Shown: piece by piece, positions 12,251 to 32,000 of the stretch
How positions within the stretch are numbered: the stretch's first letter is position 1
Layout of the letters: every line of letters starts with the position of its first letter
Origin: Pseudodesulfovibrio piezophilus C1TLV30
GTDB lineage: Bacteria; Desulfobacterota; Desulfovibrionia; Desulfovibrionales; Desulfovibrionaceae
Reading direction: 5' to 3'
Assembly (NCBI RefSeq): GCF_000341895.1
Contig: NC_020409.1
Location: 1,320,001 to 1,352,000, forward strand
DNA: 32,000 nt
The notes under the pieces: model-generated
The model's database searches: none
What the model saw: the letters and a program-made list of their open reading frames with translations, nothing else
What the model was told of the DNA's origin: nothing
Position numbers and translations under genes: made by a program

Positions 12251-12345
12251 ATTCAACGCCTTGAATCGATAATTGATTCCTTCAATGGCATTATCCGTTT
12301 TCTCGTCTTGGGTTACGTTTGGAAAGTTGGGTTCAAGAGAGTAAA

Positions 12346-12533: not shown

Positions 12534-12639
12534 TGCTTATCTCAACTCGCTGGGTGATGAAGGATTCCTCACTTAGATAGCCACAATCAGGATCAGGATC
12601 AACTCAGATGGATCTTCTAGGGTCATGTGGTGGGTTATT

Positions 12640-14767: not shown

Positions 14768-16248
14768 CTATTTGTAAACGGGAGGCTGTATTGGTTTCGT
14801 ATCTACTCTTGAATCGATGGCCTTTGCGAGTTCATATTTGCTGGGCATGAGGTGCTTAATACCCGTTCCAATTGTTTCGGCAGCCTTGCCAAATCCTTTT
14901 TTGTCATAGATTTCATAGGCAACTTCAAGAGACTCTTTGATCGCTTTTGAATCAATCATATCCATACGATCCACGACCTTGATTATCTTATCAATATCTT
15001 CCTGCGGCAAATCAGCCAATCCAGCTTCAAGATACGCTTTGGAATGAGAATCATAAGCCTTCTCTTTCAGTTTCTCAGGTTTTGATTCGTCCCACTCGCC
15101 GCGACGAAGGCCTGCTTCCATCTTGAACTGCAACTGGTCTTTGGTTCGTTCCATCCATTCCTGGCCTTCCTTGGAAAGTTCAGGTTTCAGCTTGTCGAAC
15201 CGCTTGACGTACTTGTCGCCATACTCGCGATAGTAGTAGGAGCCTCTTTGCCCAGATTGCGCTCCTCAAAGTCCTGGGCGCGTTTTTCATAGTATTCGGT
15301 TTTACCCAGGTCGTCCTTGATCCATGTGGGCTTGGCTCCCGGCTTCTGCCTGTAATGCTCCTCAACATCCTTCACGCTATTTCCGGTTTGCTTTTCCCAC
15401 TCACCTATGAGTCGAGCAGCTTTCGTTGGGGTGTCAGGCTTGGTGGCTTCAGCTTCCATCTCCCCGGCATGCTCTGCAGAAGACTTGGTAGGAGGCGCTT
15501 CTTGAACTTCTGTCGGCTCTCTGGCCGCCGCTTCATTTTGTTGCTGCGCCGGCTGCTCCTCTGGAGCGCCATCGGCGACTGTTGGAGCATCCGCAGGTTC
15601 TGCCTTTTCAACGCCTGCATAGCTCAAATACGTATCGTACATGGCATCAGCATCTTTCTCATCGAACTTGGCCTCGGACAGCACATATTTGTTGATGAGG
15701 TCGAAGGCCGCATCGTCATGCGCCTGGACGCCCTTGTCGTCCTTTGCGCCGAGCGCTCCCTGAGCGATACGCTGTAAGCCTTTGTCGAGCACGCTTTTGG
15801 AGCGCTCGTTGAGCTTATCAACGGCGAACCGATGGCCCTGTTTCAGGAAGCCGTCCTTGATCTTGGGTAAAGTTTCAGACAATGCTCCATGTCGCTTTCC
15901 TCCCTTGGGGAGATCAGACAGAATGCCATGCTCATAGTCGTCGAACTGCTTTTTCAGATTGGTCGCATCCTTGGACGGTTTCTTGCCAGTGACGTTCTTC
16001 TGCCAGCCGGCCAGCCCCTTACCGAAGAAGTCGTGCGCCTCGTTTTCCTTCTCAACAATTGTATTGAGCCGATCCAGATCATGGTACGCATCACGCTTCT
16101 GTTGTCGTGGTTGCTGCCGTTGGTTTTGATTCTTGAAGCCGATGCCCATTTCCAGCGCAGATTTACGCTGTCCGGGTGTTGCATTGTCGAGCATATTCTT
16201 CTGCTCGTCCGAGTTCATATTGATAAGTGATTTTCCAAAATCAAACAT
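14768..16248 (-). pseudogene. Full-length polymorphic toxin B (MFDFGKSL N-terminal domain plus unknown helical C-terminal domain), interrupted by a 1-nt frameshift.
   Basis: ORFs 15187..16248 and 14768..15154 together are colinear with the uninterrupted paralog 25636..26613. GATAGTAGT-AGG at about 15237 contrasts with GATAGTAGTCAGG at about 26096, so one C is missing. This may be a genuine pseudogene or a sequencing error. Confidence 0.8.
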
Positions 16249-16775: not shown

Positions 16776-17186
16776 TTATTGAAGATAAGAATTCACCTTC
16801 TCTGGGCACATATCCATCGCTGCACCCAAAGCTTTGTCTGGCGTTAAAAATTCAACACTAAACCAATCCCCTCCAGTGGAGATCGCATGTTTGGGTAGCT
16901 CGAAACCACTTGATCCGATTCGGACAATGACAGTCTCATATGGACAGTTAAGCCGAACCTCTTTCAACTCGTTCATTTTCTCAATGAGCATCACACTCGT
17001 CACATAGATCGTTTCTTCCACTCCATCCGCCAAATGCCGCCTGCCCTTACCAACGTATATTATCTCCACGTTTTCGCATAGCACAACAGTTTCGCACGCG
17101 GATGACAGGTCAACAAAACCCACCATCCACATACATATAACAATCACGGCAATGCAGATTCTATTCACTCCACACCTCGTGCTCAA
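16776..17186 (-). CDS. Hypothetical secreted or membrane-anchored protein; candidate immunity for the upstream MuF-motif fragment.
   Basis: N-terminal hydrophobic segment ICIAVIVICMWMVGFV. It overlaps the end of 17161..17721 and I recognised no motifs in it. Confidence 0.45.
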   Translation of the reverse strand: MSTRCGVNRICIAVIVICMWMVGFVDLSSACETVVLCENVEIIYVGKGRRHLADGVEETIYVTSVMLIEKMNELKEVRLNCPYETVIVRIGSSGFELPKHAISTGGDWFSVEFLTPDKALGAAMDMCPEKVNSYLQ

Positions 17187-17721
17187 GAGTGTAGTTGATC
17201 ATAACGTTGTCCGAACCGGCAGCGACCATATGTATCCGCCAATGCACCGGCGGCTCCTGGCTTGCGTCCAACGAAGTTGAGTTGCTCGAAAACGACATAC
17301 ATGTAATCTGCTCAGAATGGTCGTGGTTAGTCGACAAATGGACACCAGAAGTAAGCCCGCCAGAGATGCCCTCAAAAAATATTTTAACATGATCTCCACC
17401 CGTAAAGGTCTCATATGCATGCCCCGTTAACGGCCCATTAATATATCGTTTCGGTCTCCGCAATGGATGTTTCTTTATCTCGCATTTACATTTAGGATGC
17501 GGACGTTCCGGTTCTTCTATAAACTCTTTTCCTTCCATAGCCTTACATGTTTCACATGCTCTCTCTTTAGGATGCACAGTCCAGTAGTAATTACCTTTTG
17601 GGTTTTTAGGTGGTTTTTGATTATTACTATCATGCTTCGCTCCAGCCTTTTTGAACTTCGCTAGGCTCTCTTGAGTTGAAATCCCCACCATACGTTTTGG
17701 CATCCCGTGTCCCGTGAACAA
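17161..17721 (-). CDS. Fragment of a MuF/SPP1-gp7-like polymorphic toxin: C-terminal MuF motif plus an unknown C-terminal domain of about 100 aa.
   Basis: ERACETCKAMEGKEFIEEPERPHPKCKCEI matches the end motif of phage head-morphogenesis (MuF/gp7) domains, (D/E)RxCxxCxxxxGKxF...PxHPxCxC. Only about 60 aa precede it. The listed start is a TTG; an ATG is at 17703. The frame opens only 24 codons upstream of 17721, so the MuF domain is truncated. Confidence 0.45.
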   Translation of the reverse strand: MFTGHGMPKRMVGISTQESLAKFKKAGAKHDSNNQKPPKNPKGNYYWTVHPKERACETCKAMEGKEFIEEPERPHPKCKCEIKKHPLRRPKRYINGPLTGHAYETFTGGDHVKIFFEGISGGLTSGVHLSTNHDHSEQITCMSFSSNSTSLDASQEPPVHWRIHMVAAGSDNVMINYTLEHEVWSE

Positions 17722-17994
17722 ACTGATCGCCTCAAATGTGTTGTACCCGCTTCTCTGCCATCTCTCTTCTCCTTTTGCCCACAGGGCTGTTTATGTGTTT
17801 GCGGGAAGCCTACCACTGGTTTTTCGGAGAAAATCATCGAAACACGACACTGTCGGTCAAATACACTCTGTCGCCCGTCAAACACTCGCTCTGGTTGCTG
17901 AAATACACATTAATTTCAGCATGTTCCTCTTGACAGCTTTTTGAGGAGCTTCGATTTTTGGTCAACAGAATTGTATATTTTTTTGTATATTCCA

Positions 17995-18089
17995 CGAAAA
18001 AAGGCTTAGAAGGAAAACCTTCTAAGCCTTTATAATCATTGGTGGAGCTGGAGGGAATCGAACCCACGACCTCTTGAATGCTATTCAAA
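17995..18089 (-). repeat. tRNA-Ala-derived 3' half (18040-18089) plus terminator hairpin; att-like direct repeat, copy 2.
   Basis: Same 50-nt block as copy 1, but the anticodon loop reads ATAGCAT. The flanking DNA on both sides is homologous to copy 3. Confidence 0.8.
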
Positions 18090-18231
18090 GTCATCGTTTG
18101 TAGTTGTTTGGAATACCTATCGTTTTGAGCGAGGAATATACATCGAGGGTATATTTGCGGGTAAAAGGTATATTTTTGTATATTCCTGGGAGGTATAGAA
18201 ATGGTATATCCGGCCTCCCAGCCGCCCTACT

Positions 18232-18426
18232 CTACAGGGCTAATTTGTTCTCGGACCGGAGACAATCGGATATCCAGACCTTGACCAAAGCCTGTCTGGA
18301 AAGAACGAACCTCCGGGCCTTCTCGTCCATCTCGTTGACCATCCACACCGGGAAACCCACGTTCACTCGCTTGATCTCGCGATCAAAGGTTTCAGAGCCA
18401 ACATTTCTGTTGTCCTTGGACTTCAT
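18232..18426 (-). CDS. CopG/ribbon-helix-helix antitoxin, BrnA-like.
   Basis: KRVNVGFPVWMVNEMDEKARRFVLSRQALVKVWISDCL follows the pattern I recall for antitoxins paired with BrnT (DUF497) toxins. A near-identical paralog lies at 26981..27184. Confidence 0.6.
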   Translation of the reverse strand: MKSKDNRNVGSETFDREIKRVNVGFPVWMVNEMDEKARRFVLSRQALVKVWISDCLRSENKLAL

Positions 18427-18560
18427 AACCCACCTCGCAAGTTTTCATAGAACGGACGACATAGACCAACCATGGCCTTAGTCGGAGAAATTATGACGGT
18501 ATCCCAGAGGTGGACCATGGCTAGGACTTTGTCCGTAGACACTGATATTCTTGATGAAAT
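18423..18560 (-). pseudogene. 5'-truncated remnant of a BrnT (DUF497)-like toxin gene.
   Basis: The frame ending in a TGA that overlaps the BrnA-like ATG reads ...STDKVLAMVHLWDTVIISPTKAMVGLCRPFYEN.... This resembles the BrnT C-terminus (L.VVHT.R.D.IRIISARKAT..E...Y). There is no N-terminal half and no start codon. Confidence 0.3.
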
Positions 18561-18602
18561 GGTATACTTTTTATATCAGAAGTACACCATTTTGAATTGA
18601 GC

Positions 18603-18636
18603 AAAAAAAAAGGGTGAGGTTACGACCTCACCCTTT
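18603..18636 (-). terminator. Rho-independent terminator downstream of immunity gene C.
   Basis: The sense strand reads AAAGGGTGAGG-TCGTAA-CCTCACCCTTTTTTTTT. Confidence 0.8.
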
Positions 18637-18640
18637 ATTG

Positions 18641-19099
18641 TTATTCGCTTGTTGGGATTTTCTGCCCTGTAGCCGTTTCATACTCCTCGACAGGAACCCA
18701 CCTAACTGTACCGCAGCAAACATCACCCTCAATGGTGCCGATAATCCACTTTTTGATCAGGCTTATTCTCTCTTTAACCAGATGCAACGACTCCATGGGA
18801 GCACAGAAACTCATGGAACTTCCATAATTCTCTCTACCTCCAGGGTAGAGTGCTTGGATGTGTAGTCGTCGGTACTCATCCCATGCCTTTTGTGAGGCAT
18901 TGAATTTTTCCAAAAACTCTGGCTGATCTGAATAGAGCTCATTGATTTCTGCAATCATGGAATTCATAGTTTTCATTGCTTCGGCGTGCGTCAACTGAGT
19001 ATTATCTACCATTTGTTTGTACTCATCTTGAGCACACACAGTTGAAGAGATGACCAGCACCCAAACAACGGCCACAACGCTACGAAAGCACCTATTCAT
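18641..19099 (-). CDS. Periplasmic lysozyme-inhibitor-like protein (LprI/DUF1311-like); candidate immunity to the GH24 toxin.
   Basis: Signal peptide MNRCFRSVVAVVWVLVISSTVCAQ. A helical domain carries the ...ASQKAWDEYRRLHIQALY... pattern typical of DUF1311. The ATG at 19099 overlaps the toxin stop (ATGAATAG). The ORF-track start at 19135 would add 12 aa ahead of the signal peptide. Confidence 0.65.
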   Translation of the reverse strand: MNRCFRSVVAVVWVLVISSTVCAQDEYKQMVDNTQLTHAEAMKTMNSMIAEINELYSDQPEFLEKFNASQKAWDEYRRLHIQALYPGGRENYGSSMSFCAPMESLHLVKERISLIKKWIIGTIEGDVCCGTVRWVPVEEYETATGQKIPTSE

Positions 19100-20531
19100 T
19101 TGTTTTCCCTTTTCTACGGAAACGGCCTGCTTCATTTTTCCTACGATTAATCAAACCGTTGTTCCGTACTTTCTTACCTGTTTTGAGATCAGTGGTATAA
19201 ACCCACCGCTCCATTTCTCCTGCAACGGAATCATAGTCTTTCTTGTTAAGTTTCTTCAACAAGGTTGATGTTTTGAAATTCCCTGGCCCAACATTATAGA
19301 CAAAGCTACTGAGAGCTTCAAACTCATTTTTACTAAGAGGAACTTTTACCATGTCTTTCACGGTTGACTCTGCACTCGCCATATCTTCATCAAAGAGCTG
19401 CATTGCTTCTTCTTCCGAAATCCCATTTCCATAATTTTCCTTGTCTTCCTGGGAACATGACCCATCGTGCAGTTTGTGTCCAAATCCAATGGTACAATGC
19501 CCTGAGGCATCATTATAAAGCTTCGATTCGAAACCTTCGAACTGCCGCACCTCTTTTCGAGCATCATCACTGGAAGAGAGATCTTTTAGTGATGACCGTT
19601 GCCATCCAGTCTGAGCACCTTCCGAAGGAGACTCAACAGCGTCCGATTTCTTTTCCTCAGGTTCCTTCTGACCAACTTGTTCTTTGACCTTCCCACGGTA
19701 CTGGTTGTCGTCATACACCTCATCCTGGCCTTCTGGAATCTGAAGCTCGGCACCCCCTGCTTCGTTCTCACCTCCAGCATCACTCACAGTTCCGGTGTCG
19801 TTCTCAGCATGCATCTCAGCATCTTCCATCCTGAAGCCCGGCTTGGCACCCAGCAACTCTTCGTTCCCGGACGCCCGCGCCTTCCCTACGTCAACACCGG
19901 CATATCCCAGGTACTTGTCGTACATGGCGTCGGCGTCCTTCTCGTCAAACTTGGCCTCGGACGTCACATATTTGTTGATGAGGTCGAAGGCCGCGTCGTC
20001 ATGCGCCTGGACGCCCTTGTCGTCCTTTGCGCCGAGCGCTCCCTGGGCGATACGCTGTAAGCCTTTGTCGAGCACGCTACGTGAACGCTCATTGAGCTTG
20101 TCCAAAGCAAACTGATGCCCCTGCTGCAAGAAACCCTTTTTGATCTTGGGTAAAGTTTCAGACAATGCCCCGTGCCGCTTTCCTCCCTTGGGGAAATCAG
20201 ACAGAATACCATGCTCATAGTCGTCGAACTGCTTTTTCAGATTGGTCGCATCTTTGGAAGGCTTATTTCCGGTGACATTCTTCTGCCAGTCGGCCAGCCC
20301 TTTACCAAAGAAGTCATGCGCTTCGTTTTCCTTCTCAACAATGGTATTGAGCCGATCCAGATCATGGTACGCATCACGCTTCTGTTGCTTCGGTTGCTGT
20401 CGTTGGTTTTGATTTTTGGTACCAATGCCCATTTCCAAAGCAATCTTGCGCTGGCCGCCGGTTGCGTTGTCGAGTCTCTTCTTCTGCTCGTCGGGGTCCA
20501 TGTTGATGAGTGATTTTCCGAAGTCAAACAT
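19092..20531 (-). CDS. Polymorphic toxin C: conserved MFDFGKSL N-terminal domain plus a C-terminal GH24 (T4/lambda-type) lysozyme.
   Basis: Residues 1 to about 250 align with the paralogs. The C-terminus VRQFEGFESKLYNDASGHCTIGFGHKL...EFEALSSFVYNVGPGNF...NGLINRRKNEA carries the GH24 catalytic E...D...T(IG.GH) pattern. Confidence 0.85.
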   Translation of the reverse strand: MFDFGKSLINMDPDEQKKRLDNATGGQRKIALEMGIGTKNQNQRQQPKQQKRDAYHDLDRLNTIVEKENEAHDFFGKGLADWQKNVTGNKPSKDATNLKKQFDDYEHGILSDFPKGGKRHGALSETLPKIKKGFLQQGHQFALDKLNERSRSVLDKGLQRIAQGALGAKDDKGVQAHDDAAFDLINKYVTSEAKFDEKDADAMYDKYLGYAGVDVGKARASGNEELLGAKPGFRMEDAEMHAENDTGTVSDAGGENEAGGAELQIPEGQDEVYDDNQYRGKVKEQVGQKEPEEKKSDAVESPSEGAQTGWQRSSLKDLSSSDDARKEVRQFEGFESKLYNDASGHCTIGFGHKLHDGSCSQEDKENYGNGISEEEAMQLFDEDMASAESTVKDMVKVPLSKNEFEALSSFVYNVGPGNFKTSTLLKKLNKKDYDSVAGEMERWVYTTDLKTGKKVRNNGLINRRKNEAGRFRRKGKTNE

Positions 20532-21186: not shown

Positions 21187-21792
21187 CTAAAAAGGAGAAC
21201 CTTCCAAGCCTTTAAAATTCTTGGTGGAGATAGCTGCGTTTCTAGCCTGACAGAAACCCATTCCCCTACTTCTCGGACCATCTATCAACCGCAACATGTC
21301 CCTCTCAGCGAACACGCAGCCATCAATGTCTTTGCCGCTATAGGGTGTATCGTTGAGTAACCCCGTAATCCATTGAATCTCACTACGAGTCCTCGGTAAA
21401 TGACCAAGCCGATTCTTCAACATGTACTCCATATTAAACTTCATGTCGTTCATCGTTCCAAGGACACTTCGACTATGGGTCTTGCCATATGAGAACGGGC
21501 CGAGCAGCAACTTGGCTTGAGCTATTTGCGCTGATGTTGCCCCAACACCCAGAAGAGCTATCTCGAAGTGCTCGATGAACACCTTGTCGAAGTTCATGAA
21601 GTCCTTCTTGACCAAGCCGGGCATAAACACGGCAAACCGGGTTTCATCGTTGACTAATAGCACGGACTTTCTACGAAAGAATCTGAAGATGTTGCCCTGC
21701 CAGCCTTGTAGCCCTCGTTGACTAGTAGGCTCTAGGATTTGTGCTGGCTTGATCTCGGCCAAAAGCTTTTGGGTACATCCGATGTAAGGCAT
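21187..21792 (-). CDS. Hypothetical protein. I cannot name the family.
   Basis: Long ORF with plausible composition (MPYIGCTQKLLAEIKPAQILEP...WQGNIFRFFRRKSVLLVNDETRFAVFMPGLVKKDF...). The N-terminal part is duplicated as a pseudogene at 12346..12533. The last ~12 codons run into a degenerate copy of the tRNA terminator / 3'-end repeat, so the C-terminus may be a fusion artefact. The ORF-track start at 21831 is 13 codons upstream. Confidence 0.55.
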   Translation of the reverse strand: MPYIGCTQKLLAEIKPAQILEPTSQRGLQGWQGNIFRFFRRKSVLLVNDETRFAVFMPGLVKKDFMNFDKVFIEHFEIALLGVGATSAQIAQAKLLLGPFSYGKTHSRSVLGTMNDMKFNMEYMLKNRLGHLPRTRSEIQWITGLLNDTPYSGKDIDGCVFAERDMLRLIDGPRSRGMGFCQARNAAISTKNFKGLEGSPF

Positions 21793-21902
21793 TGTTGATC
21801 TCATCTGGTTGGGTGGTAAAAGATTCCTCACTCAGAGAGCCACAATCGAACTCAGGATCAACTCAGATGGATATTCTCGGATGCTGTGGTGGGCTATTCA
21901 TT

Positions 21903-21972: not shown

Positions 21973-22182
21973 CCCCTGTAATTTCAGCATCCTCTCAAAA
22001 CCTGTCAAGCCTTAATTACGGGAATGTACTTGTTTTATACCGACCGGCCCGTGCATTTGACCGACATCGGGCTGCATTTGACCGACACGCTTTGCGCAGA
22101 CCGCCTCTTCCCTCAAAACCCCATGCTACGCTAACCGCAAATCAATAAAGGGCCGCCTGCTCTGCGGTCCGAAGGAAACTAT

Positions 22183-23430
22183 ATGAGCGTATATGAAATG
22201 AGGTTGAAGCACGATCAGAACGGTCGCATTGCGGAGAAAATTGAAACCATCAAAGGCAAGTCCATCAAGTGGACATACTCCTATGACAAAAAGGGGCGTC
22301 TGTTTGAGGCGCATTTGGACAATCGGCTGGTCTGCCAATGTCATTATGACAGGGGTGGCAGGCGACAGCAGGACTACTTCCCCAGGACCCATGGCAGTCA
22401 ACTGCGGAATTACCACTACCGCATGGACAACCGGCTGCAACAGGCCGGAAACAACGGCTACACCCATGACAAACAGGGATTCCGGTCCATCTGGAATAGC
22501 GGAGGCAAGTATACGCTCTATGAGTACAAGTCTGACTATCGGTTGCTGAAAGCGGAGAAACGGGAGACATGGGAAATCTTCGAGTTCTCGCACGACGACA
22601 ACGGCCAGCGGCAAGTGAAAACCTGCAACGGCGAGGTTGTTGAAGCCTACCAATGGCTCGATTTTATCCGGCTGGCCGGATTCCATGACGGCGAGATCGG
22701 CTACCGCTTCATTTATGAAGACAAAGAACGTACACCCTACGCCATGCAACGTGAAGACGGTGCCGTGGCCTACCTGTATTACGACCAGATCGGCTCCCTG
22801 CGGGTGGTTGCCCACAAGTCCGGCAACGTGATAAAGGAAGTCTTGTACGACCCCTTCGGTGGGATTATTGAGGACACCAACCCTGACTTCCGCATACCCA
22901 TCGGATTTGCTGGTGGATTGCATGACCGGGACTTGGGTTTCGTGAGATTCGGCTGGCGGGATTACGACACCTTCACCAGCCGATGGACTGCGCCAGACCC
23001 GATAGGTGATGCTGGAGGCGACCCGGATTGGTATGGGTACTGTCTCGATGATCCGGTGAATGGGATTGACCCGTTGGGATTGTTCGTTTTCGGCAAAACA
23101 GGACTGGGCATTTTCCCCGGAATAGGAACCGATGGTTCAACTGCGGACAAAAGGAACTATGAGTTGAAACATGAGCATGGTTTCTATGAAGATGGTACGG
23201 GAGACAATATCGGCCTGTTTGATGGCGGTCCAAAACGAACAGAGGACATCACAAAGTACAAACTTGATGAAACGCACTTTGACGACAAGCGCATGCGACA
23301 GGCCGAAAAGAGTCTTGATCCGGGAGAGTACAAGATGTGCAAGTGGGGCGGCAAATCTAATAATTGCCAGGATTATGCCGATGCTCTGCGCGAACGTTAT
23401 CGGTTTATACGCACTGCGGAAAAGCACTAA
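22183..23430 (+). CDS. Orphan Rhs/YD-repeat C-terminal fragment with a variable toxin tip (possibly LRAT-like / permuted NlpC-P60).
   Basis: YD-type repeats (YSYDKKGRL, YHYRMDNRL, GYTHDKQG, YEYKSDYRL). The Rhs core end motif is FAGGLHDRDLGFVRFGWRDYDTFTSRWTAPDPIGDAGGDPDWYGYCLDDPVNGIDPLGL. The tip of about 110 aa contains KHEHGFYEDG...NIGLF and NNCQDYADAL, which resemble the LRAT His-box and NCEHF Cys motif. At 415 aa it is far shorter than full Rhs proteins. GAAGGA RBS lies 6 nt upstream. Confidence 0.75.
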   Translation: MSVYEMRLKHDQNGRIAEKIETIKGKSIKWTYSYDKKGRLFEAHLDNRLVCQCHYDRGGRRQQDYFPRTHGSQLRNYHYRMDNRLQQAGNNGYTHDKQGFRSIWNSGGKYTLYEYKSDYRLLKAEKRETWEIFEFSHDDNGQRQVKTCNGEVVEAYQWLDFIRLAGFHDGEIGYRFIYEDKERTPYAMQREDGAVAYLYYDQIGSLRVVAHKSGNVIKEVLYDPFGGIIEDTNPDFRIPIGFAGGLHDRDLGFVRFGWRDYDTFTSRWTAPDPIGDAGGDPDWYGYCLDDPVNGIDPLGLFVFGKTGLGIFPGIGTDGSTADKRNYELKHEHGFYEDGTGDNIGLFDGGPKRTEDITKYKLDETHFDDKRMRQAEKSLDPGEYKMCKWGGKSNNCQDYADALRERYRFIRTAEKH

Positions 23431-23480
23431 CGCAATAATACAGCCGGGGGGCAGCTATCTCCCAGCTGACAAGGATGCCC

Positions 23481-24017
23481 ATGAAAGGTTTAAAAATCTT
23501 CCTTATCTGCATAGTTCTCGGTGGGGTGTTTGTTTATAACACTAACTGGTTTCAATCCTTTTTCTTGTACAACCGCTTTTTAGAGAGCATTGCCGATGTC
23601 CCGTTTGACGTGACAAAAAAAGGGGAGACGATTTCAATCCCGCTCAAGCATAAATTCAACACTTGCTATGAGCTGAATGTAGCAGTCCCTGATAAGAATA
23701 TATTTCATGACAACATCGTTGGCCCAGGGGCCCTGAGGTACCGCTTTGTTTCCGGAGGAAAAATACTGGCAAAGGGATTTACCTTTCCTGCAGTACGGCA
23801 ACACCTCACGCTTTATCGTGGAGTTACATTGATAACCATACTGGTATTCGACCTCCCTACCCCCGGCGCTGGGAATGATGTGTCACTGGAATTGACAGTA
23901 GATACCCCCATGGCCTTCCTCAATAAATATGCTGGCAAGATTAAATGCAACATTCGGCCTAACTACAGTGCAAAGGCTGGAGGCTGCTATAATGAAGAGC
24001 TCCGAATAGAATATTAG
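23481..24017 (+). CDS. Candidate Rhs immunity protein with an N-terminal TM helix or signal anchor.
   Basis: It lies immediately downstream of the Rhs tip. The N-terminus is MKGLKIFLICIVLGGVFVY. An AAGGA RBS precedes the second ATG; the ORF-track start is 23475. Confidence 0.55.
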   Translation: MKGLKIFLICIVLGGVFVYNTNWFQSFFLYNRFLESIADVPFDVTKKGETISIPLKHKFNTCYELNVAVPDKNIFHDNIVGPGALRYRFVSGGKILAKGFTFPAVRQHLTLYRGVTLITILVFDLPTPGAGNDVSLELTVDTPMAFLNKYAGKIKCNIRPNYSAKAGGCYNEELRIEY

Positions 24018-24165: not shown

Positions 24166-24320
24166 AATTATGGGGACTGGAATTATGGGGACAGCCACCT
24201 ATCTTTCTTCTTTTAATTAGGTGACTGTCTCCATAATTTGGAAATATAATTAGGAAGGTATCCCCTTAATTTTCTTAAACAATAGGAATTAGGGAGGTGT
24301 CCCCCTAATTCCCCCTAATT
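24166..24320. repeat. Cluster of REP-like palindromes.
   Basis: AATTATGGGGAC occurs twice in tandem. Next comes the palindrome AATTATGGGGACAGCCAC-N22-GTGACTGTCTCCATAATT, then AATTAGGAAGGTATCCCCTTAATT and AATTAGGGAGGTGTCCCCCTAATTCCCCCTAATT. The cluster is colinear with 29221..29340. Confidence 0.75.
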
Positions 24321-25154: not shown

Positions 25155-25616
25155 GTGACTAATTCAAGAAAATTCACATGGTTCTTTGCCTTAGGGATTG
25201 CCAGCATAGCGTCAGTTTATGCTACGGCTATCCATTTGTGGTTGGAGGATGCCTCTCACTCAGCCTCCGTAAGCGCGATCTTAGGCTCTCTGGTGCTGAG
25301 TTATGCCATCTGGCTTTGGCTGCATGAAAAACGAGGAGCGAAGGCGTTTAGTGGCGTTGTGCTCGGTGGTCTGTGCGGTTGTCTCGCCTTGATTCTTGGG
25401 CCGTTAGGCTTTGGGATAGAGGACCTTTTAATTGGTCCCAGCAAAGAGCTTGTGCTGTCAGAGTTGGTTTATATCCCCCTCATTAGCATTGCGTCTTTCC
25501 CTTTGATCTTTCTAGTTATGCATGGCTGGGCTGTAGTGTTGGCCGGTGTGCTGCTGGGGGGAGTCATAGAACAGCTGGAGCATCGTTCTTCAGAAAAGAA
25601 TGAGGGGAAGGGGTAG
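25155..25616 (+). CDS. Small polytopic membrane protein; candidate immunity (paralog by position and topology of 14265..14729).
   Basis: About 4 TM segments. It is convergent with orphan toxin E, has a homologous upstream sequence, and uses a GTG start. Confidence 0.55.
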   Translation: MTNSRKFTWFFALGIASIASVYATAIHLWLEDASHSASVSAILGSLVLSYAIWLWLHEKRGAKAFSGVVLGGLCGCLALILGPLGFGIEDLLIGPSKELVLSELVYIPLISIASFPLIFLVMHGWAVVLAGVLLGGVIEQLEHRSSEKNEGKG

Positions 25617-25635: not shown

Positions 25636-26613
25636 TTACTTCTTTTTTCTCGGAACATACGGATTAGTGTCCAATGCCTCCTCGGTTTCATCGTAAGCCT
25701 CCGGATTCGGTGCTGCGACTTTTTTGATGCCTGCCTTTACCGCGCCCCAGCTTTGCTCGCTGACCCCGGTCTCCTTCAGGACTTGCAGAGATTCCTTGAG
25801 CGCTGCCCCATTCGTCATATCCAATCTGTCAACGACCCCGACGATTTTTTCAATGTCCTCCTGGGGAAGATCTGCCAGACCGGCCTCCAAGTATGCTTCA
25901 GAGTGCGAATCATAAGCCTTCTCTTTCAATTCTTCAGGTTTTGATTCGTCCCACTCGCCGCTAAGAAGGCCTGCTTCCATCTTGAACTGCAACCGGTCTT
26001 TGGTTCGTTCCATCCATTCCTGGCCTTCCTTGGAAAGTTCAGGTTTAAGCTTGTCGAACCGCTTGACGTACTTATCGCCATACTCGCGATAGTAGTCAGG
26101 AGCCTCTTTGCCCGGATTGCGCTCCTCAAAGTCCTGGGCGCGTTTTTCATAGTATTCGGTTTTACCCAGGTCGTCCTTGATCCATGTGGGCTTGGCTCCC
26201 GACTTCTGCCTGTAATGCTCCTCAACATCCTTCACGCTATTTCCGGTTTGCTTTTCCCACTCACCGATGAGTCGAGCAGCTTTCGTTGGGGTGTCAGGCT
26301 TGGTGGCTTCAGCTTCCATCTCCCCGGCATGCTCTGCAGAAGACTTGGTAGGAGGCGCTTCTTGAACTTCTGTCGGCTCTCTGGCCGCCGCTTCATTTTG
26401 TTGCTGCGCCGGCTGCTCCTCTGGAGCGCCATCGGCGACTGTTGGAGCATCCGCAGGTTCTGCCTTTTCAACGCCTGCATACCTAAGGTACTTGTCGTAC
26501 ATGGCGTCGGCGTCCTTCTCGTCAAACTTGGCCTCGGACGTCACATATTTGTTGATGAGGTCGAAGGCCGCGTCATCGTGGGCCTTGACGCCATCCTCAA
26601 AAAAGACAACCAT
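25636..26613 (-). CDS. Orphan polymorphic-toxin cassette E: 5'-truncated gene with an intact unknown helical C-terminal domain.
   Basis: The family sequence starts only at ...GVKAHDDAAFDLINKYV (about residue 165 of full-length paralogs), after a junction-created MVVFFED. The C-terminal 250 aa are colinear with toxin B but uninterrupted. No leader and no Shine-Dalgarno are present. Confidence 0.7.
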   Translation of the reverse strand: MVVFFEDGVKAHDDAAFDLINKYVTSEAKFDEKDADAMYDKYLRYAGVEKAEPADAPTVADGAPEEQPAQQQNEAAAREPTEVQEAPPTKSSAEHAGEMEAEATKPDTPTKAARLIGEWEKQTGNSVKDVEEHYRQKSGAKPTWIKDDLGKTEYYEKRAQDFEERNPGKEAPDYYREYGDKYVKRFDKLKPELSKEGQEWMERTKDRLQFKMEAGLLSGEWDESKPEELKEKAYDSHSEAYLEAGLADLPQEDIEKIVGVVDRLDMTNGAALKESLQVLKETGVSEQSWGAVKAGIKKVAAPNPEAYDETEEALDTNPYVPRKKK

Positions 26614-26679: not shown

Positions 26680-26743
26680 CTCCCCCCTAAATATAATCCT
26701 CACCCACCCGATATCATTTGTATATTCTTTTGTATATTCCACG

Positions 26744-26836
26744 AAAAAAGGCTTAGAAGGAAAACCTTCTAAGCCTTTAAATTCATTGGTGGAGCTGGAG
26801 GGAATTGAACCCACGACCTCTTGAATGCCATTCAAA
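26744..26836 (-). repeat. tRNA-Ala(GGC)-derived 3' half (26787-26836) plus terminator hairpin; att-like direct repeat, copy 3.
   Basis: The sense strand reads TTTGA-ATGGCAT-TCAAG-AGGTC-GTGGG-TTCAATT-CCCTC-CAGCTCC-A-CCA. The loop AUGGCAU and the 3' end AGCUCCACCA match what I recall of E. coli tRNA-Ala(GGC). Confidence 0.8.
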
Positions 26837-26980
26837 TGCACAATCTGTAATTGTTTGGAATACTTAATCTTTATAAAGAGGAATATACATCGAGGGTATA
26901 TTTACGGGCATAAGGTATATTTTTTGTATATTCTTGGGAGGTATAGATATGGAACCTATTCTACCTCCCAAAGCCCTACT

Positions 26981-27184
26981 CTACAGGGCCAGCTTGTTTT
27001 CAGACCGGAGACAATCGGATATCCAGACCTTGACCAATGCCTGTCTGGAGATACCGAGCCGTCCGGCCCTCTCGTCCATTTCCTTGACCATCCATACCGG
27101 GAAATCAACATTCACTCGTTTGATCTCTCGCTTGTAGGTTTCAGAATCAGAGACGCTTCTCTCGAAGTTGTCCTTGGACTTCAT
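26981..27184 (-). CDS. CopG/RHH antitoxin, BrnA-like (paralog of 18232..18426).
   Basis: KRVNVDFPVWMVKEMDERAGRLGISRQALVKVWISDCLRSENKLAL. A frameshifted BrnT-like remnant (...IIPTRTKAVFVRPFYEN*) lies upstream at about 27195-27320. Confidence 0.6.
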   Translation of the reverse strand: MKSKDNFERSVSDSETYKREIKRVNVDFPVWMVKEMDERAGRLGISRQALVKVWISDCLRSENKLAL

Positions 27185-27365
27185 ACACCACCTCGCTAGT
27201 TTTCATAGAACGGACGAACAAAGACAGCCTTCGTCCTCGTTGGAATTATCATGACGATATCCAACGTGTAGGAAGATGGCTAGGACTTTGTCCGTAGACA
27301 CTGATATTCTTGATGAAATGGTATACTTTTTATATCAAAAGTACACCGTTTTGGATTGAGCAAAG

Positions 27366-27395
27366 AAAAAGGGTGAGGCCGTAACCTCACCCTTT
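27366..27395 (-). terminator. Rho-independent terminator downstream of immunity gene D.
   Basis: The sense strand reads AAAGGGTGAGG-TTACGG-CCTCACCCTTTTT. Confidence 0.75.
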
Positions 27396-27404
27396 GATCC
27401 GAAA

Positions 27405-27896
27405 TTACTGGCAGAGGTCTTCCAGTGCTTGGGGGTCATCATCCCCATAGCCTAAGTCTCTCGAAAATATCTTTTTGATTTCCGAGCAAGTATACTTCTT
27501 ATACTTTCCAAAGAAGCGTGTGTTGACCCCACATCCGGCAAAATGGGGAAGAGCATTTATGACTTCCAACTCATTATCACCGAATTCAATATGAACATAG
27601 GGGTCATCCACACGGTCCTCGAAAACATAGGTGGCTATTACACTGTTTCCTTTGAGTGTCCCTCTGGCAAGAAGCTTACAATCAGAGGGAACGGTCACGT
27701 CTTCCCGCTTGCCGGAGTGACCACCCCAAAGGCGGATGGTCACATCCCCATTATTCCCGTCTATGTAGACCAACGAATGCGCCCCACTACTGTGGACATT
27801 CAGGTAAATCCCCGAAACAGATTCGGCAGATGATGACCCTACTGAGGCAAGGATAAAGACAAAGACCAGTATCATTTTGGATGCAACATTTATCAT
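27405..27896 (-). CDS. Secreted candidate immunity protein (paralog of 12735..13220).
   Basis: Signal peptide MINVASKMILVFVFILASVGSSSAES. It shares the C-terminal block with 12735..13220. Its start lies 2 nt after the stop of the toxin D C-terminal ORF. Confidence 0.7.
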   Translation of the reverse strand: MINVASKMILVFVFILASVGSSSAESVSGIYLNVHSSGAHSLVYIDGNNGDVTIRLWGGHSGKREDVTVPSDCKLLARGTLKGNSVIATYVFEDRVDDPYVHIEFGDNELEVINALPHFAGCGVNTRFFGKYKKYTCSEIKKIFSRDLGYGDDDPQALEDLCQ

Positions 27897-27898: not shown

Positions 27899-29213
27899 TT
27901 ATTCTTTTCGACCCTTCTTCAATTTGTTAAGCGCATCAAGTTTTTCACGTTCGAGTCTTTTCTGAACGTTCTCTCTCACCTTCTTGGACGAACCTCCAAA
28001 GCGAGTTTTTCTTTCTTCGTAGATGGCTTCTATCAAGTCCGATTCAAACTCTTGACTCGAAGGATCGAATCGTTCCTCCTGTTTGAGTTTTTCAACAGCC
28101 TTCTTCACCACATTGGTGTCGGGGCCATGCTGCACTCCAGTCGACCATAACACTTGCTGTACTGTCTTTGAGTGCTTGTCAGCATCAAGACCAGATTCTT
28201 TTGCGCCATTTGCGACAGGCAAATAGTGACCGTCATAGATGAATTTATCTTGGCGACGTTCAAATTCCTCAGGATGCTTGTCTGCCATTTATCGCCACTT
28301 CTTGTCGAACTCAGCAGACCCCGGAGTCAGTCCTTCAAACTCGTTCTTCCAAGGAAAATCCTTAGATGTCACGAATTCTTTGACTCTACCTCCAACTTCC
28401 CCCTTGTGTCTACTTGTCATTTGATACTTGCCATACGATTTGCCACCCAAATCTCCTTCCCCAGAAGAAATGGCATGCGAACCGTCTTTGCCTGATTCAT
28501 ACTTCTCTGACAGTTCGCCAAGATCAGCGTGTGCATTGGGAGCCTCGCTCTGTGGTTTCTGTCTTTCTTTCTGCTGCTCCAGGTCTTTGACCTTCCCTCG
28601 ATACCGATGACCGTCATACATCTCGTCCTTCCCTTCCGGGATTTCAAGGTCAGCGTCTTCTGCCTTTTCCTCACCGCCAGCATCACTCGCTGTATCAGTG
28701 TCATTCTCAGCATACATCTCGGCATCTTTATCATCAAACTTGGCCTCGGACAGCACGTACTTGTTGATAAGATCGAAAGCGGCGTCATCATGGTTCTGGA
28801 TATCCTTTTCGTCTTTGGCACCGAGCGCACCTTTGGCAAGACGCTGCAAGCCCTTGTCGAGGACAGTACGGGAACGCTCGTTGAGTTTGTCCAGTGCAAA
28901 CTGATAGCCCTGTTGCAAAAAGCCTTTTTTGATGTCGGGCAAGGACTTGGAAAGAGCTTCATGCCGTTTACCACCCTTGGGTACTGTGGAAAGGACAGAA
29001 TGTTCATAGTCATCAAACTGCTTCTTGAGGTTGGTAGCATCTTTGGACGGCTGATTGCCGGTGACATTCTTCTGCCAGTCAACCAGCCCTTTACCAAAGA
29101 AGTCATGCGCTTCGTTTTCCTTCTCAACAATTGTATTGAGCCGATCCAGATCATGGTACGCGTCCCGCTTCTGTTGCTTCGGTTGCTGTCGTTGGTTTTG
29201 ATTTTTGATGCCT
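27899..29213 (-). pseudogene. Orphan polymorphic-toxin cassette D: 5'-truncated (lacks the first ~37 codons and the start codon), with an in-frame TAA inside the muramidase-like domain.
   Basis: The frame is open from the REP junction and reads GVGIKNQNQRQQPKQQKRDAYHDLDRLNTIVEKENEAHDFFGKGL.... It contains no ATG, GTG or TTG until 28942. A TAA at 28289-28291 (KKWR*MADKHPEEF) sits where cassette A reads DRWKEFSEKHPEEF. There is also an internal deletion of the YAGVD...KPGFKMED linker. Confidence 0.75.
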
Positions 29214-29220: not shown

Positions 29221-29425
29221 AATTATGGGGACAGTCACCCGCTGCGCAGAATTATGGGGACAGTCACTTATCTTTCTTCTTTTAATTAGGTGACTGTCCC
29301 CATAATTTGAAAATATAATTAGGGAGGTGTCCCCCTAATTCCTGGCCAATCGCGCCAAACCATCTCCTCTTGTTATGGAATAAAGAATAATTTAGTAAGG
29401 TGTCCCCGAAATTCCTCCCCGAAAT
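29221..29425. repeat. Cluster of REP-like palindromes at the truncation junction of cassette D.
   Basis: AATTATGGGGACAGTCAC occurs at 29221-29238 and 29250-29267. The perfect 18-nt inverted partner GTGACTGTCCCCATAATT is at 29290-29307, with a 22-nt spacer. AATTAGGGAGGTGTCCCCCTAATT is at 29317-29340, and a degenerate unit (AAGGTGTCCCCGAAATTCCTCCCCGAAATT) lies near 29396-29425. Confidence 0.8.
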
Positions 29426-29427: not shown

Positions 29428-29799
29428 TCAAAAAAAGTCGATGTATATTCCCAGAACATATGATTCATCCTCTTTTACAATCCGTCTGACTTCTCTGTTT
29501 GGGCCGATGAAAAGCCAAATCCGTGTCGTGCCTATCTCGCTCGGATTGTCAGCAGATGGAGCGGCCATAAACTCCCACTCACCCCATGGAGTGGAATGGA
29601 CATAAAAATCCCCTTTGATATCCCATGAACAGCAGGTTCGAGGCTGCCCCAATTTGATATGAAGCTGTGTACGAGACATCCCCTTTTTAATGCTATCCCA
29701 TTGTGTCGGATACCCAGCGTAAAGATAGAGAACACTGCATCCGACACTAAGGACCAGCCAGTAAAGTAGTATTTTCATAGTAAGTAATAGAGGTTTCAT
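29428..29799 (-). CDS. Candidate immunity protein (secreted, possibly a lipoprotein) for the NlpC/P60 amidase toxin.
   Basis: MKPLLLTMKILLYWLVLSVGCSV is a signal or lipobox-like sequence. An AGGAGG RBS lies 6 nt upstream of the ATG at 29799; the ORF-track start is 29829. The gene begins 50 nt downstream of the toxin F stop. Confidence 0.65.
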   Translation of the reverse strand: MKPLLLTMKILLYWLVLSVGCSVLYLYAGYPTQWDSIKKGMSRTQLHIKLGQPRTCCSWDIKGDFYVHSTPWGEWEFMAAPSADNPSEIGTTRIWLFIGPNREVRRIVKEDESYVLGIYIDFF

Positions 29800-29848
29800 G
29801 ATCGCCTCCTTGTATATTGAAATCACCACCTAACTGGCATTATGTCAA

Positions 29849-31174
29849 CTATCTTTGATTGCCGGTTTTTCCGACATATCGTCTGTATGTTATTTCCCCG
29901 GCTTGCCCCTCTCTGAATCCCCAGTCGTTTTCGACCACTTTATTTTTTATCGATGAAGCAGAGACCGTCTTACCGTCACCGCTAACGATGCCAACGTGCT
30001 CAGAACTTGCTGCAACGTCACCAGGTTTAGGATCATCAACAACAACCCATCCATCTAATTCCATATCTTTATTGGCCCAATCGGCCGCGACGGGCGGATA
30101 CATATCATTCGACAGAGGGTTATTTCCTTCATGGATCAAGGGAACAGGTGTCCCATTTTCTTTGAGAACATCATAAGCGAATTTGTTGCACTTAGTTTTG
30201 CCCCATCCAAAGTCATCTTTGCTTTTGAACTTAGCCCAAGCATCACTCCCTACATACTTTTTCGCTACATAGGCAGAATGTTCAGTGGACCATGCTTTTG
30301 GCTTCACATCATGATCAGCACCAGCCTCCTTCGTCCTTTGCTTGTTCTCAGATTTTTCCTCAGTGTTGCCTTTCCCGGCTATTTTGGGGCCCTGCGCCTC
30401 TGTCTCTTCCTTGCCACCAGCATCACTCACAGTGCCAGTGTCGTTCTCAGCATACATCTCAGCGTCTTCCATTTTGAAGCCCGGCTTGGCTCCCGGTACT
30501 TCTTCATTCTCAGACGCTCGTGCTTTCTCTAGGTCAACACCAGCATAACTCAGATATTTGTCGTACATGGCGTTTGCGTCATTCTCATCGAACTTGGCCT
30601 CGGACATCACGTACTTGTTGATAAGATCGAAAGCGGCATCATCATGAGCTTGTATGTCATTATCACCACTGGCACCAAGTGCGCCTTTAGCCAATCGCTG
30701 CAAGCCCTTGTCAAGCACGCTACGTGAACGCTCATTGAGCTTGTCCAAAGCAAACTGATGCCCCTGCTGCAAGAAACCCTTTTTGATCTTGGGTAAAGTT
30801 TCAGACAATGCCCCGTGCCGCTTTCCTCCCTTGGGAAGATCAGACAGAATGCCATGCTCATAGTCGTCGAACTGCTTTTTCAGATTGGTGGCATCTTTGG
30901 AGGGCTTATTCCCGGTGACATTCTTCTGCCAGTCGGCCAGCCCTTTACCAAAGAAGTCATGCGCTTCGTTTTCCTTCTCAACAATAGTATTGAGCCGATC
31001 CAAATCGTGATAAGCGTCCCGCTTCTGTTGCTTCGGTTGCTGTCGTTGGTTTTGATTTTTGATGCCGATGCCCACTTCCAAAGCCAATTTGCGCTGGCCA
31101 GGTGTTGCATTGTCGAGCATCTTCTTCTGCTCGTCAGGATCCATATTGAGAAGTGATTTTCCAAAATCAAACAT
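29849..31174 (-). CDS. Polymorphic toxin F: conserved MFDFGKSL N-terminal domain plus a C-terminal NlpC/P60-CHAP-type cysteine peptidase (probable peptidoglycan amidase).
   Basis: The N-terminal ~250 aa align with toxins B and C. The C-terminus has GWGKTKCNKFAYDVL (catalytic Cys context) and PGDVAASSEHVGIVSGDG (catalytic His context), in the canonical Cys-then-His order. Confidence 0.8.
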   Translation of the reverse strand: MFDFGKSLLNMDPDEQKKMLDNATPGQRKLALEVGIGIKNQNQRQQPKQQKRDAYHDLDRLNTIVEKENEAHDFFGKGLADWQKNVTGNKPSKDATNLKKQFDDYEHGILSDLPKGGKRHGALSETLPKIKKGFLQQGHQFALDKLNERSRSVLDKGLQRLAKGALGASGDNDIQAHDDAAFDLINKYVMSEAKFDENDANAMYDKYLSYAGVDLEKARASENEEVPGAKPGFKMEDAEMYAENDTGTVSDAGGKEETEAQGPKIAGKGNTEEKSENKQRTKEAGADHDVKPKAWSTEHSAYVAKKYVGSDAWAKFKSKDDFGWGKTKCNKFAYDVLKENGTPVPLIHEGNNPLSNDMYPPVAADWANKDMELDGWVVVDDPKPGDVAASSEHVGIVSGDGKTVSASSIKNKVVENDWGFREGQAGEITYRRYVGKTGNQR

Positions 31175-31350
31175 AGTTCAGTTCCTCCTATCAGGATGTA
31201 GTTTTTTCAAAGACCAGACATCCTAACCCCGGTTTTCGCCCCAGGATGAAAACGGGCGAAAAAGGGTACTAAAAGGACAAGAAAAGAATAACTTGGCAGC
31301 TTGACATGATTTTTAAGTAGAGGTTTGGTAAAACGGCTACCGAATAAAAT
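31175..31350 (-). promoter_or_regulatory. Conserved structured 5' leader / promoter region (copy 3 of 3).
   Basis: Sense-strand hairpin AGGATGT-N18-ACATCCT lies directly before the TAGGAGGA RBS. TTTCGCCC / GGGCGAAA and CCCGTTTTC / GAAAACCGGGG are mutually exclusive pairings. The CATGTCAAGCTGC block is present. Confidence 0.55.
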
Positions 31351-31414: not shown

Positions 31415-32000
31415 TGGACAGTTTTACGTGTTACGCCGCCTTGTGGGTCCATCCCAGAGGGGGTACCCCCTCTGGGATGGGACCGCTTTGATATATCTCC
31501 ATCGGCTTGCGTCCGTCAAAGGTCTTATGAGGACGCCGATTATTGTAGAAGTTAAACCACCAGGCCAAGGCACTCCGCAGCTCACTTCCTGTCTCCAGTT
31601 CCCGCAAGTAGACACATTCGTATTTCAAAGACTTCCAGAGTCGTTCGATCATGACGTTATCCATCCAGCGTCCTCGGCCATCCATTGAAATGCGGATGCC
31701 AGCATCCCGCAGAGTCTTTGTGAATTCATAGCTGGTGAACTGGCTCCCCTGGTCTGTGTTGAATATCTCAGGTTCTCCATAACGGTTGATCGCATCCTCC
31801 AAAGCTACGACACAAAAGTCGGCCTCCATCGTATTCGACAAACGCCACGACAATACTGCCCGGCTATGCCAATCCATGATTGCCACGAGATACAAGAAGC
31901 CTCGTTTCATCGGAATGTAAGTAATGTCGGTACACCAAACTTGATTTGGCTTTGTGATCTTCATGTTCCGCAACAAATACGGATATATTTTGTGCTGTGG
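31415..32000 (-). mobile_element. IS3-family insertion sequence, partial: 3' part of the OrfB DDE transposase plus a terminal inverted repeat.
   Basis: ORF 31431..31976 and beyond has an rve integrase core ([10 protein letters not shown]...[13 protein letters not shown]...FNTDQGSQFTS...NVMIERLWKSLKYE...YNNRRPH). A TGGACAG... terminus at about 31415 lies 16 nt beyond the stop. The element runs off the right window edge. Confidence 0.85.

Follow-up and report, generated by a model that had tools for sequence, protein, structure and literature searches.

The subject of this analysis is a family of toxin genes in a window of 32,000 nucleotides from the genome of the deep-sea sulfate reducer Pseudodesulfovibrio (formerly Desulfovibrio) piezophilus C1TLV30 (contig NC_020409.1, positions 1,320,001 to 1,352,000; window positions are counted from the first of these). 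The products share an N-terminal domain, referred to here as the N-domain, and differ in their C-terminal part. Four open reading frame (ORF) products of the window are 100% identical to proteins of this strain. Three full-length ORFs open with the same residues, MFDFGKSL..., and measure 441, 479 and 353 aa, the last being a frameshifted copy, and three 5'-truncated ORFs open with progressively shorter pieces of the N-domain (Table 1). Residues 1-250 of the 441-aa toxin are encoded at 30425-31174(-). Alignment of the window copies places the conserved core of the N-domain at residues 1-214; an acidic linker segment (residues 215-255) is common to some copies only.

Table 1. Toxin, immunity and upstream-element features of the window, followed by phage head loci found elsewhere (L numbers)
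Feature	Position	Strand	Details
Intact toxin gene, 441 aa	29849-31174	-	N-domain, acidic linker, CHAP/NlpC-P60-like C-terminal domain
N-domain core of the 441-aa toxin	30533-31174	-	residues 1-214; alignments, AlphaFold2
Bipartite element of the 441-aa toxin gene	31227-31312	-	first half AAATCATGTCAAG, TGTCAAG from 31306 down to 31300; second half CGAAAACCGGGGTTA, from 31241 down to 31227
Immunity candidate, CHAP-type toxin	29428-29829	-	hydrophobic N-terminal segment, possibly a lipoprotein signal; downstream partner kept in L004, L005 and L007
Intact toxin gene, 479 aa	19092-20531	-	N-domain and GH24 phage-type lysozyme
Element first half (TGTCAAG), 479-aa lysozyme toxin	starts at 20660	-	
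Immunity candidate, lysozyme toxin	18641-19135	-	LprI-like lysozyme inhibitor (E 8.6e-5), signal peptide
Third full-length toxin copy, type D payload	14768-16248	-	frameshift, giving 15187-16248 (353 aa) and 14768-15154 (128 aa)
Element first half (TGTCAAG), third full-length copy	starts at 16378	-	
Immunity candidate, type D	14265-14729	+	multi-pass membrane protein on the strand opposite the toxin; kept beside type D toxins in L006, L010 and L013
5'-truncated orphan cassette, type D	25636-26613	-	N-domain from about residue 174 on, intact type D domain; no upstream element
Paralogue of the type D immunity candidate	25155-25616	+	
5'-truncated orphan cassette, VgrG3-like_C (lysozyme-like)	27899-28942	-	split into two ORFs; N-domain piece opens ORF 28289-28942
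Immunity candidate, cassette 27899-28942	27405-27896	-	
Second 5'-truncated, split VgrG3-like_C cassette	13207-14063	-	Pfam match, alignment; N-domain piece opens ORF 13530-14063
Immunity candidate, cassette 13207-14063	12735-13220	-	
Mini-Rhs toxin, 415 aa, with variant element	22002-23430	+	gene at 22183-23430; AAACCTGTCAAG at 22002, two TTTGACCGACA repeats, then CTCAAAACCCCATGCTA
Mini-Rhs partner	23475-24017	+	hydrophobic N-terminus
MuF-motif small protein, 186 aa, with variant element	16776-17936	-	gene at 17161-17721; CTGTCAAG from 17936 down to 17929, then CCGAAAAACCAGTGGTA
Signal-peptide partner of the MuF-motif protein	16776-17186	-	
Capsid loci	L003 7137-8280; L004 2365-3498; L032 10001-11113		
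Portal-module loci	L019 13159-16319; L023 9709-12787		

Payloads and immunity partners

The recognisable C-terminal domains, or payloads, all attack peptidoglycan, as the first-pass annotation of the window had proposed. The 479-aa toxin carries a Phage_lysozyme domain (Pfam, E 1.9e-39), and T6SS_VgrG3-like_C payloads (E 5e-23 and 2e-20) are present in two copies, both confined to truncated, split cassettes. The payload of the 441-aa toxin is putatively assigned to CHAP from a match to residues 321-401 (nt 29972-30214; E 1.2e-4) that lies under the Pfam cut-off and is repeated in 8 family members, with a best E of 1.4e-6; PDB sequences give this assignment no support, and among PHROGs the protein matches phrog_329, a minor tail protein (E 8e-4). 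The fourth payload (type D) has no match in Pfam or among PDB sequences, and its AlphaFold2 model is too poor for identification (predicted local distance difference test, pLDDT, of 49). Across 42 family members the only Pfam families are CHAP (8), Phage_lysozyme (5) and VgrG3-like_C (4), with one more payload type showing a faint SLT match and with no nuclease or other cytoplasm-acting domain. Since every recognised payload in these 42 proteins is a peptidoglycan hydrolase, the set fits a delivery route that ends in the periplasm.

The same annotation had held that the toxins lack a Sec or Tat signal and that their immunity candidates are exported, and both statements are borne out. No toxin has a hydrophobic N-terminal segment (maximum Kyte-Doolittle value over a 12-aa window 0.17-0.62); the adjacent immunity candidates reach 2.3-3.4 on this scale in segments resembling signals, and one of them is the LprI match. 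When about 18 independent genomic contexts are compared, these downstream immunity genes are the sole conserved neighbours of the toxin genes, and no small conserved lipoprotein gene of the lysis type was found beside the toxins.

The family is a polymorphic toxin system. In such systems, which include CdiA, Rhs and MafB, a conserved N-terminal trafficking region is reportedly combined with a variable C-terminal toxin, a cognate immunity protein and displaced orphan cassettes. Likewise, one N-domain is here joined to at least four to six C-terminal domains, each with a downstream immunity candidate, and the 5'-truncated orphan cassettes retain a stretch of the conserved region. The family nevertheless differs from CdiA, Rhs and MafB in that its N-domain lies outside the described trafficking classes, and in that its recognised payloads are peptidoglycan hydrolases only, with neither nucleases nor deaminases.

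Both P. piezophilus type D copies that possess the N-domain (the one at 14768-16248(-) in the window and another in L002) are broken near the start of the payload, one by a frameshift and the other by a stop codon at a nearby site, and an intact type D payload is kept in this species only in the promoter-less orphan cassette. The region upstream of the 441-aa toxin gene is bordered by an IS3-family transposase gene (rve integrase core; 31431-32000(-)), which extends past the end of the window. Elsewhere, too, members of the toxin family are interrupted or flanked by transposases, such as IS110 in L001 and a Y1 transposase in L019.

A bipartite upstream element common to toxin and phage head genes

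A bipartite element (AAACCMTGTCAAG ... CCGAAAACCGGGGTTA) stands before each full-length toxin gene, and about 135 nt ahead of every such copy are conserved regardless of the sequence further upstream; the truncated orphan cassettes lack the element. Its consensus reads AAACC[C/A]TGTCAAG-N8-TTAT[G/A]C, followed about 48 nt later by CCGAAAACCGGGG[G/T]TA, and the ATG of the 441-aa toxin gene is located 132 nt downstream of the first half.

When both strands of 541 kb of fetched loci were searched with a loose pattern ([CA]TGTCAA[GC], about 68 nt, then the CCGAAAAC type), 28 matches were obtained, and 24 of them are sense-oriented and stand 100-236 nt upstream of a gene belonging to one of five classes: N-domain toxins (14 sites), phage capsid genes (3), the first gene of a phage portal module (3), mini-Rhs toxins (3) and a MuF-like gene (1). 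The other four consist of one canonical element that runs off the end of its locus (L036) and three matches without the rest of the element (L021, L022 and L037). With a tighter pattern, the two other full-length copies of the window are recovered as well, together with several further toxin copies and an additional portal-module site. The element thus found stands ahead of the capsid gene in L003, L004 and L032, ahead of the gene that opens the portal module in L019, L023, L025 and L030 and, in canonical form, ahead of a MuF-motif protein in L007 and of the mini-Rhs toxins in L033-L035; within one genome (L019), the elements of the toxin copy and of the portal module are nearly identical. MuF is a family associated with phage heads and portals, and the 186-aa protein of the island in the window shows only the C-terminal MuF motif (Phage_Mu_F, E 3.7e-4; phrog_4728, head morphogenesis).

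The elements ahead of the mini-Rhs and MuF-motif genes of the window, 22002-22130(+) and 17936-17810(-), are longer variants with about 40 extra bases; these bases include two direct TTTGACCGACA repeats about two helical turns apart, which suggests a putative additional binding site for a regulator. Other readings of the upstream region were considered. For two hairpins suspected in the leader RNA, RNAalifold predicted 0 pairs on 13 leaders, and Rfam gave no match in the window. The motif fits poorly, on inspection, to sigma-54 or sigma-28 promoters or to a LexA box, and no sigma-70-like promoter was found upstream of the toxin.

In a motif scan of IMG/VR, six of the seven matches look like chance occurrences inside unrelated phage genes, and a scan of metagenomes returned five loci only. 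One IMG/VR contig (L041) has a similar bipartite element (CCATGTCAAG ... CCCGAAAACCCCATGTTA; 1595-1677(-)) upstream of a 70-aa gene and of a long ORF of more than 430 aa that is cut by the end of the locus, which hints that the element may be of a late-gene promoter type used by phages infecting this group.

Dispersed podovirus-type head genes

The head genes that share the element form two separate loci among housekeeping genes, and their synteny is conserved. One locus contains the capsid gene (PF19821, E 7.6e-72) together with a gene for 81-82 aa (L003 and L004); the other encodes, in turn, a small protein, a T7-type portal (PF12236; phrog_332, E 5e-123), a Bbp19-like protein and a protease-like protein. 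P. piezophilus has such a portal, WP_015415670.1. Portal and capsid are each present in nearly every named Pseudodesulfovibrio species listed and in neighbouring genera, and their identities track taxonomy (66-87% for the capsid, 57-82% for the portal). Judged from these sequences, the head genes look like a vertically conserved, domesticated element resembling a gene transfer agent (GTA), rather than prophage debris. This element is possibly related to the Dd1 agent of Desulfovibrio, Dd1 of Desulfovibrio desulfuricans being mentioned as a GTA (PMC11841831).

As with GTAs, the head genes are conserved within the lineage, split over several loci and placed among housekeeping genes; in contrast to GTAs, no terminase or tail genes were seen within 10 kb of the head loci. 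We know of no GTA that has been reported with polymorphic toxins and immunity partners. Three different toxin architectures appear to share the putative promoter of these GTA-like head genes, and we infer from the shared motif that toxin and head genes would be co-regulated. Toxin genes are also found at most 10 kb from the capsid locus (L003 and L004) and from the portal locus (L019), which makes 2 independent cases among about 18 contexts where chance alone would give about 0.2, a statistic computed after the pattern had been noticed.

Spread and predicted structure of the N-domain

Pfam, NCBIfam, PHROGs and PDB sequences offer no match to the N-domain, and the novelty ascribed to it from the window alone holds. 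A word-indexed search returned 46 relatives, all at least 57% identical, and the named ones all come from Pseudodesulfovibrio except for a single strain, which was deposited as Desulfovibrio sp.; a profile search that exhaustively covered 1.84 billion representative proteins gave 27 matches, every one of the same family. In a collection of species-representative genomes, the domain is found in four Pseudodesulfovibrio genomes, with several copies in each. Neither PAAR, MIX, FIX nor DUF4157 matches the toxins in Pfam or NCBIfam, and the N-domain proteins have no MuF (PF04233) match. As far as these searches reach, the N-domain is confined to Pseudodesulfovibrio and near relatives and belongs to no described trafficking class. 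Readings of the N-terminus as a double-glycine leader or as a FlgJ-like rod-binding region were rejected on inspection of the sequence.

AlphaFold2, run on an alignment of 17 N-domain sequences, predicts an all-helical domain over residues 47-210 (pLDDT 82.7), with helices at residues 47-85, 91-111, 118-166, 171-191 and 197-210. The toxins had been described as beginning with some 50 disordered residues followed by a helical region; the helical part is upheld by the model, and the disordered part only to some extent. Disorder is predicted only at residues 39-47, within a Gln/Arg/Asn-rich stretch of variable length (residues 34-52). Because residues 1-33 are nearly invariant and form short helices in the model, a plain disordered tag does not describe the first 50 residues.

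When the model was compared with solved structures by Foldseek, nothing was found in the PDB (best E 0.23), and the 50 best matches included neither a colicin nor a pyocin. Against predicted viral structures, about 40 matches had a probability of at least 0.9, with template modelling (TM) scores of 0.4-0.64 and E-values from 3e-3 to 0.3, and the best ones, at a probability of 1.0, had E-values of 3e-3 to 0.1. Those that carry a name are large podovirus virion proteins with GH108, LT_GEWL (goose-type lytic transglycosylase), NlpC/P60, lysozyme or SLT domains, and one is annotated as "internal virion protein B". As a rough control, the helical model of type D was compared with the same viral library and gave a best E of 0.9 and probabilities of at most 0.28.

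Proposed role as cargo of a domesticated phage head

Because the toxin genes and the phage head genes share an upstream element, delivery by a phage-derived particle is proposed here in place of delivery by injection machines. More precisely, the toxins are read as cargo of a domesticated podovirus-type head particle, with the N-domain as the module for incorporation into the head, a reading to which we assign a probability of roughly 40%. Its bases are the lack of classical machines (see below), the shared element, the conserved head genes, the likeness in fold, the periplasm-acting payloads and the company of MuF-motif proteins. The broader idea of the first-pass annotation, that of cargo loaded into a machine, survives in altered form: the machine may be phage-derived and encoded outside the window, but the evidence points to domesticated podovirus head genes and not to a contractile tail.

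The nearest concept is that of the MuF-type toxins, polymorphic toxins of temperate phages that are said to have been proposed to travel inside phage heads. The two have in common a link to phage head components and the absence of a secretion signal, and a MuF-motif protein with its own partner even occurs in the same islands under the same upstream element. However, the N-domain proteins have no MuF domain, and the head genes concerned are dispersed, conserved chromosomal genes without a prophage. A second parallel is offered by the internal virion (ejection) proteins of podoviruses, some of which include a cell-wall hydrolase, as in T7 gp16 and phiKMV gp36. Like these, the toxins fuse a helical module to a peptidoglycan hydrolase and lack a signal peptide; the top matches in the viral library belong to this class, and the associated head genes encode a T7-type portal (PF12236). 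In contrast to internal virion proteins, the toxins show no sequence similarity to them, have half their size or less, are encoded outside a structural gene block, and are polymorphic and paired with immunity proteins.

On the proposed route, a regulator would turn on a single regulon through the shared bipartite element, and this regulon would comprise the capsid gene, the module of portal, Bbp19-like protein and protease, the N-domain toxins, and the MuF-like and mini-Rhs toxins. The N-domain would then act like the helical part of a podovirus internal virion protein, so that the toxin is packed inside the head at assembly, and particles would be released, probably through lysis of a fraction of the cells. 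Upon contact with a related cell, the internal proteins would be ejected through portal and tail into the periplasm, where the C-terminal lysozyme, amidase or muramidase would cut the wall unless the recipient exports the matching immunity protein. Three of these steps, namely packaging in the head, a complete particle with a tail and ejection into the recipient periplasm, we infer from the evidence listed above.

A wider version, possible although doubtful, is that the podovirus-derived head, which may be a GTA of the Dd1 type, doubles as a vehicle with exchangeable toxin cargo. Three unrelated classes of adaptor (the helical N-domain, the MuF motif and the mini-Rhs shell) would then bring different toxins into the head, all served by one dedicated promoter, and the cognate periplasmic immunity proteins of the recipient would decide between killing and tolerance.

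Several observations weigh against the assignment of the toxins to a phage head. With regard to structure, the Foldseek E-values of the N-domain matches are weak and constitute weak evidence alone, the type D control model is itself of low confidence (pLDDT 49), and hhalign comparison of the N-domain with the large proteins of two podophages that have related portals (L027 and L028) gives probabilities of at most 0.5%. The toxins, at 350-480 aa, are also short in comparison with the 550-1200 aa of typical internal virion proteins, and they are adjoined by immunity genes, as is usual for bacteriocins and polymorphic toxins but not for virion proteins. With regard to the particle, neither a tail, a terminase nor a lysis gene was seen beside either head locus, and published prophage screening of the P. 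piezophilus genome reports only one element, degenerate and 11.4 kb long, at 1174880-1186253 of NC_020409. Only some of the genomes with head genes also have the toxin family, and the N-domain has no match in IMG/VR, among the phage records of INPHARED or among PLSDB plasmids. Finally, a shared promoter proves at most common induction, not physical packaging.

The main rival is that the toxins are bacteriocins of the pesticin, colicin M or S-pyocin type, released by lysis and importing themselves. A receptor in the outer membrane of related strains would be bound by the conserved N-terminus and the helical domain, which would bring the hydrolase into the periplasm of these strains, and the shared promoter would only time toxin synthesis with a phage-derived lysis event. 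Much of the layout agrees with this: a conserved N-terminus, a low-complexity stretch, a helical domain, an acidic linker and a periplasm-acting enzyme follow one another, the immunity protein is exported, and all recognised payloads act in the periplasm. Pesticin, in which a T4-lysozyme-like killing domain is paired with a periplasmic immunity protein, offers a parallel to this layout, and the toxins resemble pesticin and colicin M in being signal-less, in their cell-wall-directed C-terminal domain (one of the phage lysozyme type), in the exported immunity protein and in a narrow taxonomic range. An N-domain limited to one genus is, moreover, what would be expected of a receptor-specific module, and the toxins stand alone in many unrelated chromosomal contexts with the immunity gene alone conserved beside them.

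On the other hand, neither Foldseek against the PDB nor profile searches of PDB sequences revealed any likeness of sequence or fold to solved colicin, pyocin or pesticin domains, including those for translocation and receptor binding, and no TonB or Tol box can be recognised, MFDFGKSL being unlike the consensus, which is enterobacterial and may not be that of Desulfovibrio. A lysis gene was not found beside the toxins, although to our knowledge colicin M and pesticin likewise lack one. The toxin genes differ further from those of pesticin and colicin M in being chromosomal, present in multiple copies, accompanied by orphan cassettes and preceded by an element common with phage head genes. Self-import also leaves unexplained both the fold match of the N-domain to podovirus virion proteins and the presence of the element ahead of MuF-motif and Rhs-type toxins. 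On balance, a self-importing bacteriocin is judged unlikely, and cargo of a domesticated head is retained as the preferred reading.

If correct, the wider version of head cargo would represent a capsid-based injection route distinct from type VI secretion systems (T6SS), from extracellular contractile injection systems (eCIS) and from tailocins, and would provide particle-mediated exchange with a built-in kin filter. Were the link between toxins and head genes physical, it would provide the first example of a domesticated phage head loaded with polymorphic antibacterial toxins; were it only regulatory, a new toxin-trafficking domain and a new regulon would still be at hand. In either case one shared element ties the toxins to phage head genes, and these head genes are kept across a whole bacterial family. 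The head-cargo reading would also supply a concrete gene set and a promoter motif with which the phage-like particles of sulfate reducers, so far poorly characterised, could be studied; such particles bear on how genes flow and cells compete in sediments, in corrosion biofilms and in the gut.

Injection machines and other export routes

Signal-less toxins that degrade the cell wall are normally explained by a T6SS. The first-pass annotation had proposed cargo of a T6SS or eCIS, and had suggested a search beyond the window for such loci and others, type IV secretion systems (T4SS) among them. For the entry D. piezophilus C1TLV30 (NC_020409), TXSScan (Table S3) lists three type I secretion systems (T1SS), one Tad system, one flagellum and two type Vb systems (T5bSS), and gives 0 for type II (T2SS), type III (T3SS) and type IX (T9SS) systems, for all T4SS types and for T6SSi, T6SSii and T6SSiii. 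At the level of the genus, Geller et al. 2021 (Supplementary Data 6) counted eCIS in 0 of 64 genomes for Desulfovibrio and in 0 of 6 for Pseudodesulfovibrio in a published census, and no paper was found that ties Pseudodesulfovibrio to T6SS or contractile injection systems.

In the approximately 18 independent contexts, the DNA up to 10 kb from the toxin gene contains no vgrG, hcp, paar or adaptor gene, and sheath and baseplate genes are likewise missing near all copies. The window itself, as had been noted, encodes no secretion machine, its sole exporter being a MacB-type ATP-binding cassette (ABC) transporter (5356-8893) beside a nonribosomal peptide synthetase (NRPS) gene. A few features are nonetheless reminiscent of injected cargo. 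One payload type matches a Pfam family named for the C-terminal domain of VgrG3, and the partly low-complexity toxin N-terminus may be likened to the cargo tags of the Photorhabdus virulence cassette (PVC). The combination of a periplasm-acting payload with an exported immunity protein is present as well, although this is not specific to T6SS. Since the published scans are negative and only immunity genes are conserved beside the toxins, with the domains PAAR, MIX, FIX and DUF4157 unmatched in addition, assignment of the toxins to a T6SS or eCIS is not supported and is regarded as very improbable.

The same scans, in which T2SS, T3SS, T4SS, T6SS and eCIS are all listed as 0, favour a route that needs no such machine, and in this respect they agree with the bacteriocin explanation. 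They also leave room for export through a resident system, such as the flagellar type III apparatus, one of the three T1SS or outer-membrane vesicles, followed by a separate entry step. The nearly invariant extreme N-terminus, MFDFGKSL, is what an N-terminal export signal would look like, and the flagellum, the T1SS, the Tad system and the two T5bSS are at hand. However, T1SS signals are normally C-terminal, and the C-terminus is the variable part of the toxins; T5bSS and vesicle loading require a Sec signal, which the toxins lack. None of the resident routes brings a folded hydrolase across the outer membrane of a recipient, and no export gene is linked to a toxin in the contexts examined. 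Such a two-step route is therefore considered improbable, if less so than a T6SS or eCIS.

Other features of the window

To the left of the toxin island (27-12189), the window contains the end of the NRPS gene, with condensation, adenylation, carrier and thioesterase domains, the MacB-type exporter and its two permeases, and a NapC/NirT cytochrome, after which comes a multihaem cytochrome c that has a Multi-haem_cyto (seven-CxxCH) domain. The GC content is 50% in this flank versus 47% in the island. A DUF6933 gene (21187-21831(-)) lies between the lysozyme toxin and the mini-Rhs gene and was not found in the other toxin loci; a partial copy, 75% identical, marks the left edge of the island (12336-12572(-)).

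A fragment resembling a tRNA 3' end (GGTTCGATTCC...CCACCA) is located at 18040-18075(-), where ARAGORN reports no full tRNA gene. The surrounding segment of 680 nt has two copies in the island (17971-18636 and 26718-27395) and is conserved in L005, L007 and L008; the fragment may be the scar of an integration site or a cassette boundary. Finally, a 92-nt repeat with internal inverted repeats (GAATTATGGGGACAG...CTGTCCCCATAATT) is found at 24180-24271 and 29249-29340, downstream of two different toxin-immunity pairs. Its two copies are 92% identical, and it may represent a small mobile or terminator-like element.

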